Below, one piece after another: positions 1,800 through 44,262 of a stretch of DNA of 64,000 nt. The stretch lies in the sequence record OM982647; one strand, written 5' to 3'. Source of the stretch: Escherichia phage ST2. Under the pieces are notes generated by a model, which did not search any database, was not told the origin of the DNA, and saw only the letters and a list, made by a program, of their open reading frames with translations. The position numbers and the translations under genes are program-made. Each line of letters starts with the position of its first letter. The first letter of the stretch is position 1.

Positions 1800-3613
1800 T
1801 GAAACAAAATATTAAAATTGGGAACGTCGTTGATGACGGACAAGGCGATTACCTTCGTCGTGGTGGTGCAAAAATTAATGAAAACTTTGATGAGTTGTAT
1901 TATGAATTAGGCGATGGCGAAGTTCCGTATTCCGCTGGTGCCTGGAAAACATACCATTCTTCAGATGGACTTAATTTAGCTGCTGAATGGGGTAAATCAT
2001 ACGCAATTGATACTTCAACAGGGCGTGTTTCTATAAATTTACCTAAAGGAACAGTGGAAGATTATAATAAAGTAATTAGAGCCCGTGATGTATTCGCCAC
2101 ATGGAATATTAACCCTGTAACATTAATTGCTGCCAGCGGTGATACTATTAAAGGTTCTTCTAGCCCAGTAGAAATCAATGTGCAGTTTTCAGACTTAGAA
2201 TTAGTTTACTGTTCTCCTGGGCGTTGGGAATACGTTAAAAATAAACAAATAGACAAAATTACTAGTTCTGATATTAGTAGTGTAGCTCGTAAAGAATTTT
2301 TAGTCGAAGTTCAAGGTCAAACTGATTTTCTTGATGTATTTGGGCCTGTTTCTTATAATGTGAATAATATCCGTGTAAAACATCGTGGTAACGAATTATA
2401 CTACGGTGACGTGTTCAGTGACAATAGTGACTTTGGTTCTCCAGGAGCTAATCCTGGTGAAATCGTTGCATTAGATGGTAAAAACATCCGTTTAAGACAA
2501 CCATGTAATATCGGCGACACCGTACAAATTGAAACCTTTTTAGATGGGATTACACAATTACGTAGTTCTTATTCTCGCCGCCAAATACGTATTTTAGATT
2601 CGAAATTAACAACCCGTCCTTCCTTAGAAGGAAGTGTATATGTCGCGGATTTGTCAACTTTGAAATCTATTCCTTTTTCGGCATTTGGAGTTAATCCTTC
2701 AGAACCGGTCAATACCAATTCTTTAGAAGTTCGTTTTAACGGTATTCTTCAAGAATTAGCTGGTACTGTTGGTTTACCTATGTTCAGGTGTGAAGGTGCT
2801 GATGCAGAAACTTCTACCGAGTGTTCAGCTTTAGGTGGGACTTGGGTTACATCTAACACCGATTATTCTATTGAATATGATGATAACGATGCAACTATTG
2901 CACGTGCTTTAGTCTTTGACCGTAAGTTTGAAGACCAAGACATTATTGATATTACATGGTTTAATAACGATTTAGGCACTTTATTAAGTATCGATGACAT
3001 TTTAGATACAACTGATGAAAGGTATGTCGCACAAGGTGCAACCGTAAATGTGACCGGCGATGTGGCTTTGACAGATTTCAATAATATCGGATGGCCTAAT
3101 GTAGAATCTGTTCCTGCATATAGCAGGGAATTCTCGTCTATTGCAAATATTTTTAACACCATTTACCCTGTCGGTACTATTTACGAAAATGCAGTGAACC
3201 CTAATAACCCAGCCACGTATTTAGGATTTGGCTCTTGGAAATTATGGGGACAAGGAAAAGTATTAGTTGGATGGAACGACGATATTAGCGATCCTAATTT
3301 TGCATTAAATAATAACGACCTTGATTCTAGCGGGAATCCTACACATACCGCCGGTGGAACAGTCGGAACAACGTCTAACACACTAACTAATTCTGATTTA
3401 CCTCCTACTCAAACTGACGAGAAAGTTCTTATTTCCGATGAGAACGGTACAATTATTATTGGTGGTTGTCAATACGACCCTGATGCAGAAGGTCCTATAT
3501 ACACCAAATACCGTGAAGGCCACGCCACAACGAATAGTACACACATACCGCCTCAAGCCGTAAATAATATTCAACCGTCAATTACCGTATATCGTTGGGT
3601 AAGGATTGCATAA
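1799..3613 (+). CDS. 10: baseplate wedge protein gp10
   Basis: 604 aa (T4 gp10 is 602 aa); position between 9 and 11; start overlaps gene 9 stop (TAATG). Confidence 0.93.
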
Positions 3614-41818: not shown

Positions 41819-42184
41819 TTAGATATCGAATTCGTTAAGAACTACATCAAAGATTGCTTCGAGATGTTCAGGTTTAGCTCGGTTACTCAGGATATGACGA
41901 ATCCAAGTTTTAACCAGAAGTTTACGATTAACACCATTCCAGCAAGGATGAGTACCTAAATCACGTTGACGGAAATCGTCATCTAATGCAATTTTGAAGT
42001 TGGAACCTTCCATCGTGATTGAAACCGTGATGCCGTTTTCAAATCGCATATAAACGTAATTAGGAGTCATGCACTGTTCGATTTCACAAACTGAACCGTT
42101 ATTATGCTTCCATAAGCAAATAACTTCAGAAGAACCAGCGATACCGTTAGAAACATATTTACGTTCGAAGTTGGTGTAGTTCAT
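41819..42184 (-). CDS. hypothetical early protein (121 aa)
   Basis: ATG start with GGAGAA Shine-Dalgarno and own early promoter; no recognisable family. Confidence 0.6.
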   Translation of the reverse strand: MNYTNFERKYVSNGIAGSSEVICLWKHNNGSVCEIEQCMTPNYVYMRFENGITVSITMEGSNFKIALDDDFRQRDLGTHPCWNGVNRKLLVKTWIRHILSNRAKPEHLEAIFDVVLNEFDI

Positions 42185-42225
42185 TTTATTCTCCAGATGT
42201 TTAAGTTGTTTGTTGGTACAGGTCT

Positions 42226-42254
42226 ATAATAACATAACCTGTACCAAAGTAAAC
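42226..42254 (-). promoter_or_regulatory. T4 early-type promoter for the 121-aa ORF, -10 bracketed by a 9-bp inverted repeat
   Basis: Minus-strand GTTTAC (42249-42254) - 17 bp - TGTTATTAT; GGTACAGGT (42215-42223) and ACCTGTACC (42237-42245) flank the -10. Confidence 0.6.
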
Positions 42255-42258
42255 ATTT

Positions 42259-42630
42259 TTATTTGATTTTTGTCCACTTAGCTGAATCAATAACACCTTT
42301 TGCTTTAATCTTCTCAATTAATGACTCTGCGCGATTTCTGGCGTTTTCGTACCATACAACATCTTCAGAGTAACCAGTTTCTTCATCTTCGTAAGTTTTA
42401 GAACGAATACAGCCGTAAACTGTAGAATTCAGGCGGTAAATTTCACCAGTGAAAAAGTTTTCGATTTCGATATGATAACAAAAATCGTCTGAAGGGCCAT
42501 CAGGAGTTGTACAATAAACCACATCACCTTGAACTGAACGAACCATCCACTGTAACTCGTTAACAACTTGAGATTTATATCCATCATGGTCGCGGCATTT
42601 AATTGTAGCATTTAAATTGATAGTGTTCAT
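42259..42630 (-). CDS. hypothetical early protein (123 aa)
   Basis: ATG start with GGAGAA Shine-Dalgarno; early promoter-like sequence upstream (GTTTAC at ~42697). Confidence 0.6.
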   Translation of the reverse strand: MNTINLNATIKCRDHDGYKSQVVNELQWMVRSVQGDVVYCTTPDGPSDDFCYHIEIENFFTGEIYRLNSTVYGCIRSKTYEDEETGYSEDVVWYENARNRAESLIEKIKAKGVIDSAKWTKIK

Positions 42631-42736
42631 TTTATTCTCCGGTTGTTTTATTGATTAGGTGGTACAAGTCTATAGTAACACATCCTACAGGAGAGTAAAC
42701 ATCTTTTTAAACTTTTTCTGCCCTAAACGCACAAAA

Positions 42737-42754
42737 GGGAGACCGAAGTCTCCC
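42737..42754 (-). terminator. intrinsic terminator GGGAGAC-UUCG-GUCUCCC + U-run after the small basic protein gene
   Basis: Same 18-mer as after genes 8, 23 and 32; on the minus strand followed by UUUUGU. Confidence 0.7.
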
Positions 42755-42759
42755 TAAAA

Positions 42760-42939
42760 TTATGCAACAACCTTTCCAAAACGAGAAGCATCATCTCGAA
42801 GAACTGCACGTGCTCTGCGCATGATCTTCTCAACTGTTTGATTAATACGAGAGTTCGACCCACGCTTGTATCCAGCGCGTTTAGAGGTACCATCAACTTT
42901 CTTTTCAACTGCTTTCTTTGCTTTAGCTTGTTTTGCCAT
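42760..42939 (-). CDS. small lysine/arginine-rich protein (59 aa); not in the ORF track
   Basis: ATG 42939 with AAGAGA 8 nt upstream; MAKQAKAKKAVEKKVDGTSKRAGYKRGSNSRINQTVEKIMRRARAVLRDDASRFGKVVA; TAA at 42760-42762 followed 5 nt later by the strong GGGAGAC terminator. The overlapping track ORF 42723..42908 is in another frame and looks non-coding. Confidence 0.5.
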   Translation of the reverse strand: MAKQAKAKKAVEKKVDGTSKRAGYKRGSNSRINQTVEKIMRRARAVLRDDASRFGKVVA

Positions 42940-43152
42940 TATAAATTCTCTTTAAATGAAAATGCAGGACTTATTGACATTGCCTGCGCAAGCCCTCAAG
43001 GGGAACATAGGTTTTGAATATTTACCGACAGGATAACCATAAACCCGTCATCATACCAACCACGACTTAGACAGATAACCTTTTTCTGACGCGTGATAGT
43101 ACAAAATACATTCAAGAGGTACACCGTAAAACTGCCGGGGTCTTAAAACTAT

Positions 43153-43170
43153 AATGATTCGCAAATCATT
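43153..43170 (-). terminator. stem-loop after rIII
   Basis: AAUGAUU-cgca-AAUCAUU, 33 nt after the rIII stop, followed on the minus strand by AUAGUUUUAAG. Confidence 0.4.
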
Positions 43171-43202
43171 AATCAGACAGTTCGACGGCTCCTCGATTTA
43201 AC

Positions 43203-43451
43203 TTACTTCAGGGTAATAACAAAATGACGTACTGCTTTACGAGCCGCAGAAGCCAAAGGCTTAGCATATTTCAGTTCATCTTTTGCTTCCAGTTCAGAGG
43301 CCAATACAGCTTGGGCAGGGTTCAGATGTTTGAAATAACGCAGGATTTCCAATGCTTCGGCTTCAACATCAATAGATGCACCGTAGTTTTCGTGACCATT
43401 ATTCCATGCGTTTCGTTGCAGTTCAAGAGCGTGTTGTAATTGTTTAATCAT
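43203..43451 (-). CDS. rIII: rIII lysis-inhibition accessory protein
   Basis: 82 aa, same length as T4 RIII (MIKQLQHALELQRNAWNNGHENYGASIDVEAEALEILRYF…). Confidence 0.93.
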   Translation of the reverse strand: MIKQLQHALELQRNAWNNGHENYGASIDVEAEALEILRYFKHLNPAQAVLASELEAKDELKYAKPLASAARKAVRHFVITLK

Positions 43452-43567
43452 TTTAAATTCTCAATTCGAGATAATATTTAGTAGCCACGTTCGTCTGAAT
43501 TTCACCTTCTTTCGACAAGTCTCTCAGTTGTAGGCTACCGCTTAGAAGAGTGTTCTCTTCATATAGT

Positions 43568-43575
43568 TATTTATA
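43568..43575 (-). promoter_or_regulatory. T4-type late promoter (minus-strand TATAAATA) upstream of rIII
   Basis: Plus-strand TATTTATA immediately after the gene 31 stop, 117 nt upstream of rIII ATG; T4 rIII has early and late transcripts. Confidence 0.55.
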
Positions 43576-43908
43576 TCACTTATAAAGACACGGAATAGCT
43601 TTATAGTGGCATGTTACGAATTTCTGTTTAATTTCTTTAGGTTGTTTAAGTCCCAAAGCCACAAATGGATGTGGAACATTTCGAATTTGTCCAACTGGTA
43701 GTGGAGTCAAATCACCGACTTCAACAAAACCTTCAGGAACATCAGGACCTACAGAATGAACTACACATAGTTCAGGAACTTCACCTTGAACACGTTTACC
43801 AATCACAAGTCCTGATTCGGTAACTTCTTCATCACCTGCTTGAGCGGGTTCAGAAACCAGAATAACATATTCACCAACAGCACGAATTGGGAGTTGTACT
43901 TCAGACAT
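43576..43908 (-). CDS. 31: head-assembly co-chaperonin gp31 (GroES analogue)
   Basis: 110 aa; [61 protein letters not shown]… is near-identical to T4 gp31. Confidence 0.96.
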
Positions 43909-43938
43909 CTTATTTCCTTGTTGTTTGACGATAGATTA

Positions 43939-43964
43939 ATAATACCATACTATTCGTAAAGCAT
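43939..43964 (-). promoter_or_regulatory. middle promoter (MotA box + -10) upstream of gene 31
   Basis: Minus strand aTGCTTTAc - 12 nt - TATTAT, ~30 nt upstream of the gene 31 ATG. Confidence 0.55.
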
Positions 43965-43965
43965 A

Positions 43966-44262
43966 TTACATAAGAAGCAAACGTTCAACCGGAGTACCAT
44001 CAACCGAAATTACTTTATCAAGGCGGAAAGAACGCCACTGACCTAACTCGGTATCGAATGCTCGAACTGATTCACGAGGTTCATAACGAACTTCTGTTGC
44101 CGGATTGTTATTTTCATATTTGACTTCAAGTTCATCGCGCGAAGCAAACATAGTGCGTACCTCGCCGTTAGCCTTTTCAAATACAACACAATGAACGCCT
44201 ACAGACAGAATAGTTTTAATACGTTCACGAAGAACCATAGTTTCTTGTTCAGTTAAAATCAT
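43966..44262 (-). CDS. hypothetical protein (98 aa), 31.1-position
   Basis: ORF-track start 44274 is GTG inside cd; first ATG 44262 lies 1 nt after the cd stop (TAATATG). Confidence 0.6.
   Translation of the reverse strand: MILTEQETMVLRERIKTILSVGVHCVVFEKANGEVRTMFASRDELEVKYENNNPATEVRYEPRESVRAFDTELGQWRSFRLDKVISVDGTPVERLLLM

Follow-up and report, generated by a model that had tools for sequence, protein, structure and literature searches.

The window analysed here, that is, the whole stretch of 64,000 nucleotides of Escherichia phage ST2 (OM982647), is that of a Mosigvirus, a T4-like coliphage, and its positions 42700-43500 are 99.6% identical to phage PhAPEC2. The genes of this region all lie on the minus strand and follow the same order as in T4, namely cd, 31.1, 31, rIII, a gap, 30.9, a terminator and 30.8. 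The first-pass annotation of the sequence had drawn attention to an island without open reading frames between rIII and a gene for a small basic protein. The borders given for it, 42940-43202, are exact: 263 bp separate the rIII stop codon from the ATG of 30.9 on the minus strand, and because the gene order matches that of T4, the small basic protein is gp30.9. The gap is framed by the following features:

43203-43451, minus strand: rIII, the upstream neighbour, 82 aa, identified from the list of open reading frames and the PhAPEC2 annotation (99.6%).
42760-42939, minus strand: gene 30.9, the downstream neighbour, encoding a 59-aa basic protein.
42737-42754, minus strand: intrinsic terminator after 30.9, GGGAGAC-UUCG-GUCUCCC and then UUUUGUG.

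The terminator (dG -14.1 kcal/mol, z = -4.3) is annotated as such in PhAPEC2 and G53, and likely marks where the island's transcription unit stops. The product of 30.9 belongs to PHROG 1427 (category 'unknown function'), and searches of Pfam, NCBIfam and PDB sequences gave it no significant match; the label '1,4-alpha-glucan branching enzyme' that it bears in several records is surely an annotation-transfer error. T4 records disagree on the length of 30.9, which is given as 97 aa ('ORF D', X17657; L005 137-430), 72 aa and 58 aa (T4 reference). The 72-aa version starts at an upstream ATG within the hairpin that is called M7 below (other 30.9 record loci are L008 824-1042 and L185 465-641), and the 72-aa and 97-aa versions would overlap conserved RNA modules. 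On the other side of rIII, the 124-bp spacer towards gene 31 (43452-43575) is also without an open reading frame; it has the lowest identity to T4 of the segments compared (76.6%, with 23 gap columns). A candidate for the proximal rIII promoter lies within it, a promoter-like site at 43499-43471 on the minus strand. For rIII, promoters of the early, middle and late classes have been reported (PMC9409239).

The statement that the gap holds no open reading frame of more than 30 codons is correct for ATG starts but not for GTG or TTG starts. Two such frames lie within the gap on the minus strand, one of 42 aa (GTG, 42996-43124) and one of 37 aa (TTG, 43051-43164), and a 59-aa frame on the plus strand (42838-43017) enters it from outside. 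The 37-aa and 42-aa frames are carried as CDS in two GenBank records; a 1-nt insertion in other Mosigviruses disrupts them, as do a 2-nt deletion in L137 and a deletion of ~50 nt in T4. No frame is kept in homologous phages and the T4 reference annotates nothing here, which upholds the noncoding reading. A decayed gene, one of the possibilities named at first, is contradicted by this lack of a conserved frame and by an identity to T4 that exceeds that of the coding neighbours. The island is marginally more GC-rich than the sequence further out (0.41 vs 0.33-0.40), as had been noted, but not than rIII and 30.9, which also stand at 0.41. A promoter scan of the gene strand of 42940-43202 found no promoter-like site or hexamer pair. 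A terminator scan of the region found no canonical terminator in the island; this negative is weak, because the same scan misses the true 30.9 terminator. ARAGORN reports no tRNA or tmRNA gene in 42000-44000, and T4 rnaC and rnaD share only chance matches of 7-11 nt with the island (blastn, word size 7). In Rfam, the 4-kb region (E up to 10) and ten related loci (E up to 0.1) gave nothing beyond chance matches of the snoRNA type, and 42900-43230 (331 nt, E up to 10) gave two chance snoRNA matches only and no ribozyme.

Read in the sense of the genes, the island divides into modules, whose names (M1-M7) were coined in this analysis; the ST2 window has the arrangement M2-M3-M4-M6-M7. The features proposed are:

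43116-43194, minus strand: M2, a long branched hairpin, backed by covariation and by its minimum-energy fold.
43152-43171, minus strand: hairpin D, inside M2, UAAUGAUU-UGCG-AAUCAUUA with a UNCG-type loop; U run at 43145-43148.
43061-43095, minus strand: M3, a hairpin that has an asymmetric internal loop as well as a conserved 9-nt loop, AAAAGGUUA; contains the repeat copy at 43070-43080.
43007-43057, minus strand: M4, an H-type pseudoknot, backed by covariation; contains the repeat copy at 43027-43038 and the conserved linker GGUAAAUAUUCAAAA.
42989-43006, minus strand: M6, a small hairpin, GUUCCCC-UUGA-GGGCUUG.
42964-42987, minus strand: M7, the final hairpin ahead of the 30.9 ribosome-binding site, GCAGG-14-nt loop CAAUGUCAAUAAGU-CCUGC.
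42945-42963, minus strand: a predicted weak hairpin, AUUUUC-AUUUAAA-GAGAAU, over the 30.9 Shine-Dalgarno sequence (~42948-42952).

Of the 770 phage records, T4 included, that contain homologues of the island, 518 cover 80% or more of it. The synteny comparison with the T4 30.9-rIII interval, which had been suggested as a check, reveals a homologous noncoding spacer of 244 bp in T4 (130541-130784), unannotated in the reference genome. Identity to T4 reaches 98.9% in M2, 95.7% in M4 and 98.3% over M6-M7 with the ribosome-binding site, against 88.8% in rIII, 89.5% in gene 31 and 92.1% in 30.9. A noncoding stretch that is more conserved than its coding neighbours is either under selection or was recently exchanged. 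The alignment of ST2 with T4 has a gap of ~50 nt that coincides with M3, and T4 is without M3. As for an origin in the host, the island is unmatched in 5,426 complete E. coli genomes, and three pattern matches in bacterial genomes are attributable to chance (~4 expected by our own estimate; model scores insignificant). In IMG/VR, the M4 pattern matches on contigs of T-even size only, and a search with the 14-mer TTTTACGGTGTACC returned mostly chance loci, real copies of M2 making up 7 of 100 and all lying on T-even contigs.

M2 is built from helices A (GAGG/CCUC), B (GCCGU/ACGGU) and C ((G)AACUGUC/GGCAGUU(U)), which enclose hairpin D and the single-stranded segment UAGUUUUAAGACCCC. Across 14 distinct sequences, 98.6% of cells are paired and six pairs have changed on both sides, while sliding the partner strand as a control lowers the pairing to 28-62%. 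In phiWec190 and UPEC06, helix C has gained matching extra bases on both strands. G-U occurs without exception at two pairs, and 8 of the 14 sequences have U-G at a third; since G-U pairs become A-C on the opposite strand, the folded species is the rIII-sense RNA. Folded alone, M2 adopts the same structure as its minimum-energy fold (-25.9 kcal/mol, z = -2.8). Hairpin D occurs with three stem versions, AAUGAUU/AAUCAUU, AUCGAUU/(A/G)AUCGGU and AGUGAUU/GAUCACU, all of which pair. It corresponds to what the first-pass annotation had called the rIII terminator hairpin. A hairpin is indeed present just downstream of rIII and is followed by UAGUUUU, a U run kept in all variants, but its status as a terminator is doubtful: the 8-bp stem with its single G-C pair is weak (dG -4.7 vs -14.1 kcal/mol for the 30.9 terminator) and lies inside a larger fold, in which helices B and C, both covarying, surround it and have their 3' strands past the U run. 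The GGAG of M2 (GGAGCCGUCGA) was also considered as a target of the RNase RegB, whose site consensus is GGAGRAYARAA (PMC1702504); because it departs from this consensus and is base-paired, RegB probably does not cut there.

The near-direct repeat reported earlier is present as GACAGGATAACC (43027-43038) and GACAGATAACC (43070-43080), and a match of 11/12 within 263 bp would be expected ~0.01 times by chance according to our own estimate. On the gene-sense strand it reads GGUUAUC(C)UGUC and makes up the end of the loop and the 3' stem in M3 and M4 alike, which gives the two modules the look of related hairpins. The inner stem of M3 is CAGA/UCUG in ST2, CAGC/GCUG in L133 and L152 and CAGGC/GCUUG in phiWec190. 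In M4, stem 1 joins 43044-43049 with 43027-43032, and the pseudoknot helix joins the loop bases 43035-43038 (GGUU) with 43010-43013 (AACC). Two positions of stem 1 vary as UA (12), AU (11) or GC (1) and as CG (16), GC (5) or UA (3), with no unpaired cells. The second helix, formed by the hairpin loop with bases after the conserved linker CGUUAAAUAUCCAAAA, has 4-5 bp in ST2 and T4 and 7-9 bp in other cases, such as UUGUUGGUU/AACCAACGG and UUCAAGGUU/AAUCUUGGG; the loop forms 5.87 bp with its own tail as compared with 4.59 bp with the tails of other lineages. Covariation in stem 1 as high as observed arose in 0 of 500 shuffles, and a loop-tail value as high in 0 of 5000 permutations; these counts are not probabilities, the structures having been derived from the same sequences that were used to test them, and shuffle tests overstate significance because the sequences are related. 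A covariance model of M4 has one match of 68 bits in the 64 kb, and M4 is therefore not a dispersed repeat.

Closer to 30.9, the flanks of M6 are nearly invariant, GU(A/U) on one side and CUUG on the other (CUUU in L150). Its stem has only 3-4 bp, so that sequence conservation speaks for M6 more than covariation does, and covariation in the CUUG flank is unreadable since CUUG hardly varies. The stem of M7 is GCAGG/CCUGC in ST2 and GAACUGG/CCAGUUC in L147 and L160, which have the same loop type, and unrelated hairpins replace M7 in other lineages. Where ST2 has the predicted Shine-Dalgarno hairpin, many other lineages have UCUCC...GGAAGA; a hairpin covering the Shine-Dalgarno sequence before 30.9 thus appears, from folding predictions, to recur across lineages and to be of low stability. 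Compensatory changes in M2 and M4 answer the covariance check against related phages that the first-pass annotation had called for. The RNA structure prediction proposed alongside it gave a divided result: M2 and stem 1 of M4 are the only parts that are notable when folded alone; taken in full, the island is no more stably folded than its shuffled versions (gene strand, z = -0.66; opposite strand, z = -0.35), which is uninformative.

How these modules vary was followed in 40 rIII loci from IMG/VR together with T4, NP4 and the carriers outside the T-even group. The rIII-30.9 spacer of T-even phages ranges from 121 to 420 bp and is composed of recurring modules. M4 and M6 are present in every T-even spacer examined and, with the terminal hairpin, always lie between rIII and 30.9. 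Their order is M4-M6 in ST2 and T4 and M6-M4 in L152, L154 and L170, and in L147, L149, L151, L155 and L159 either M1 or M5 is inserted between them. M1, M2, M3 and M5 have been gained or lost between close relatives, and the distance from M4 to the start of 30.9 varies from ~50 to ~280 nt. M1, a 31-bp hairpin (GGAGAUUCACUGCAUUAGCGUGAGC), stands right after the rIII stop codon in T4 and most Mosigviruses (cf. L134 1749-1790) and is missing in ST2, PhAPEC2, moha and JS98-type phages; the ST2 junction at 43200-43202 (TAAGTTAAATCGAGG) is identical to that of the JS98 type, which suggests a recombinant patch. M5 is a domain of ~140 nt (CGGCAAGUGCAUGC...GCAACAGAUAAGAG), in the M3 slot or elsewhere, that many T-even phages possess and ST2 does not (L139 at ~1840-1990, L143, L145, L149-L151, L153, L155-L159, L161, L162 and L167). 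RNAalifold predicts for it a multi-helix fold with compensatory changes in 17 of 44 pairs, and the closing stem covaries. One hairpin of this fold has a GNRA loop (UCGA-GAAA-UCGA, with the stem variants CUGA/UCAG and CCGA/UCGG), and M5 has no match in Rfam. Distant T4-like phages that are without 30.9 are also without the spacer. In five of these distant phages (L163, L164, L166, L168 and L169), whose RIII is only 54-64% identical, an ORF of ~110 aa with the motif DSQDAGY...TLETPR...LGPKDY begins 0-50 nt after rIII and replaces the spacer and 30.9. The unit of spacer, 30.9 and terminator therefore looks like a T-even-specific cassette.

Pieces of the island also occur in the tRNA gene clusters of three unrelated coliphage lineages, represented by phiWec190, UPEC06 and phi92. 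In phiWec190, M1-M2-M3 lies between tRNA-Gln and tRNA-Pro, with spacers of ~9 and ~14 nt. In UPEC06, M2-M4 without M6 directly precedes a tRNA-like sequence (L010 ~2385-2470, minus strand) that has a 7-bp acceptor stem (GCGCGGG...CCCGCGC), a T arm (GAAGG-UUCGAGU-CCUUC) and an over-long middle; ARAGORN makes no tRNA call on it, and it could be an intron-containing or degenerate tRNA. In phi92 (L006 2901-3248), the entire T4-type island, 98% identical, lies between tRNA-Gly and tRNA-Gln. This copy of 338 bp is circularly permuted: with GCAAAA as the junction, the island and the start of 30.9 are followed by the final 98 bp of rIII. The copy ends on both sides in the same 16 bases, TA(G/A)TTTATTGGAGATT, of which 15 are identical. 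The related phage PHB05 (L173 ~440-470) has the empty site, with TTTATTGGAGATT at the 5' end of tRNA-Gln. The permuted copy and the empty site are what integration of a 338-bp circle via 13-nt homology would produce. T4-type phages have been reported to form small circles of DNA when short repeats that lie near each other recombine (Arbiol et al. 2010, PMC2839356), and the phi92 copy looks like such a mini-circle after integration. The phi92 protein gp113, annotated as 'putative rIII', is a chimera of the 30.9 leader and the rIII tail. Copies outside the T-even group are rare in their lineages, most of the UPEC06 query being covered in 4 records and the phi92 query in 17.

Among the possibilities listed in the first-pass annotation, a structured RNA, be it a leader or a small RNA, is the one that gains most from these observations, namely that the island is more conserved than the genes on either side, that M2 and M4 show compensatory changes, and that there are G-U pairs specific to one strand. 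We consider it very probable that the island is a functional structured RNA. The explanation that we prefer as a whole is a transcribed, structured noncoding RNA between rIII and 30.9 that acts in cis on the expression of both genes, and we give it a probability of about 0.5; that the RNA is mainly cis-acting, taken as a separate point, is a tentative view that we rate slightly below even odds. The island should sit on rIII transcripts, since it has no internal promoter-like site and the only strong terminator follows 30.9. Read-through from the rIII promoters would thus transcribe it, in a unit that ends at the 30.9 terminator. The resulting RNA would be a string of independently folding modules, with a core (the M4 pseudoknot, M6 and the final hairpin beside a weakly sequestered ribosome-binding site) and accessory domains (M2 and M3 in ST2, M1 and M5 in relatives). 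The core and the last hairpins would set the level of 30.9 translation from the read-through RNA, and M2, with its weak hairpin and U run, may provide rIII messages with a protected, partly terminating 3' end.

The variable distance from M4 to 30.9 and the variable order of the modules are unusual for a single cis operator, and the modules found in the tRNA clusters of phiWec190 and UPEC06 without 30.9 or rIII fit independent RNAs better than a leader. The main rival, which we hold to be rather unlikely, is that the modules are genes for stable small RNAs that are cut from the transcript, in the manner of the T4 stable RNAs C and D, and act in trans, and that their position between rIII and 30.9 is incidental. 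The copies in the tRNA clusters of phiWec190, UPEC06 and phi92, where tRNA processing would release discrete structured RNAs, are in line with this, as are the free order of the modules, each closed by a stem of its own, and the resemblance of hairpin D with its conserved U run to the 3' end of a small RNA. Yet the copies outside the T-even group are rare and recent and could be neutral insertions at one tolerant noncoding region, and the modules have neither similarity to rnaC or rnaD nor a tRNA-like feature detectable by ARAGORN. More speculative, and in our judgement unlikely, is the idea that the modules form a horizontally mobile family of structured RNAs that travels on DNA mini-circles between unrelated coliphages. 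Under it, M4 with M6 would be a new permutable ribozyme or switch, or the modules would be stable decoy or processing RNAs; they would be kept in tRNA operons for an action on host or phage RNA metabolism, and M5 would be a further complex member.

The remaining explanations we consider far less probable. Natural ribozymes show circular permutation, and the arrangements M4-M6, M6-M4 or with a domain in between are similar to this; M4 and M6, which co-occur in every T-even spacer examined, might then be a self-cleaving ribozyme, distantly pistol-like, that cuts the rIII-30.9 transcript. The parallel with the layout of pistol and the CG-UUAAAUA linker of env25 point the same way (PMC6101554, PMC4604425). 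A ribozyme is nevertheless very unlikely, given that no Rfam ribozyme matches, that P2 could consist only of CAA/UUG, that the junction is C or CU, and that UPEC06 has M4 without M6. A role of the DNA itself (a hotspot for recombination or mini-circles, an array of protein-binding sites, or a PeSL-type cassette of promoter and terminator) would account for the gain, loss and reordering of modules at this hotspot and for the circularly permuted copy in phi92, which recalls the small DNA circles of T4-type phages (PMC2839356). Against such a role, to which we attach little probability, stand the compensatory changes that keep helices and the G-U pairs on one strand, which point to RNA, together with the lack of a promoter-like hexamer pair on the gene strand and of a canonical terminator, and the single copy of M4. 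That the spacer is a decayed-gene remnant or functionless and neutral is barely credible: its length of 121-420 bp and the short GTG and TTG frames, annotated in some records, would suit this view, but conservation is higher in the modules than in the genes next to them, the frames are broken between close relatives, and double changes maintain the helices.

As a structured leader or noncoding RNA of phages, the island is absent from Rfam and from the T4 reference annotation. Literature searches on rIII with 30.9, on T4 noncoding RNAs and on T4 transcript maps turned up no description of the region, though an older one is possible. T4 is the reference phage of molecular biology, and an unannotated gap of 244 bp in it holds folds that are supported by covariation and are more conserved than the neighbouring genes. 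RIII has recently been linked to ribosomal protein S1 and to the RNase RegB (PMC9409239). The island is thus a testable handle on post-transcriptional control in T-even phages, on the function of gp30.9 and on RIII. In addition, the exchange of RNA domains in a mosaic, and the uptake of such domains into tRNA clusters of unrelated phages, constitute a natural record of the movement of noncoding-RNA modules between phages.

Several known systems invite comparison. The leader of T4 gene 32 contains an H-type pseudoknot followed by A/U-rich sequence, which is conserved in T-even phages and acts as a translational operator; it lies at a fixed distance from the start codon and is bound by gp32. To our knowledge, gene 32 is the one established case of a pseudoknot that governs translation in the T-even group. 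The island resembles it in placing a conserved H-type pseudoknot, with A/U-rich sequence behind it, in a putative noncoding leader, but differs in that the distance from M4 to 30.9 is variable, from ~50 to ~280 nt. If the island acts as we propose, the gene 32 leader pseudoknot would be its nearest functional parallel within the phage group. Phage T4 encodes two structured stable RNAs, C and D (species 1 and 2), that are released from a tRNA operon by processing. A comparable place is taken by the modules in phiWec190, UPEC06 and phi92, whereas the T-even island lies outside the tRNA cluster.

With respect to genomic behaviour, PeSL elements consist of an early promoter (TTTACW-N17-TAYWAT) and a terminator stem-loop and are present in many copies per genome (Comeau et al. 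2014, PMC4122927). Both they and the island are intergenic stem-loops tied to module shuffling. The island, in contrast, is without a promoter-like site, has a single-copy core and forms complex folds; as a PeSL cassette it was rejected, there being no promoter-like site on the gene strand and only one match of M4 in the 64 kb. For small DNA circles, a role in carrying sequence horizontally has been proposed (Arbiol et al. 2010, PMC2839356), and the permuted copy in phi92 fits this.

With respect to shape, preQ1-I aptamers have the topology and size class of M4: a stem of 5-6 bp, pairing between loop bases and the 3' end, and a linker rich in A that might lie along the groove of the stem. The preQ1-I family (RF00522) gave no Rfam match, its conserved bases differ, and the neighbours of the island (rIII, 30.9, gene 31 and cd) include no queuosine genes. 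In the pistol ribozyme, a hairpin loop pairs downstream and a small variable hairpin follows (PMC4604425), and pistol is often associated with phages (PMC4604425, PMC6101554). Its covariance model, with 10 highly conserved nucleotides and helices P1-P3, has no match in 42900-43230 at E up to 10. The loop measures 11 nt in M4 as against 6 nt in pistol; for a P2 helix, only CAA/UUG could pair in M4-M6; and the junction after M6 is C or CU, whereas that of pistol is strictly 2 nt, usually GU, and holds the cleavage site. What pistol (RF02679) shares with M4 and M6 is the general layout and a CG-UUAAAUA linker right after the hairpin, as in the env25 pistol (PMC6101554), and M4 has the P1-type hairpin with a pseudoknot from loop to downstream sequence, as seen in the covariation of stem 1 and of the loop-tail helix. 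The nearest known systems are small pseudoknot aptamers and the P1-pseudoknot module of pistol in shape, and PeSL cassettes and mini-circles in genomic behaviour.
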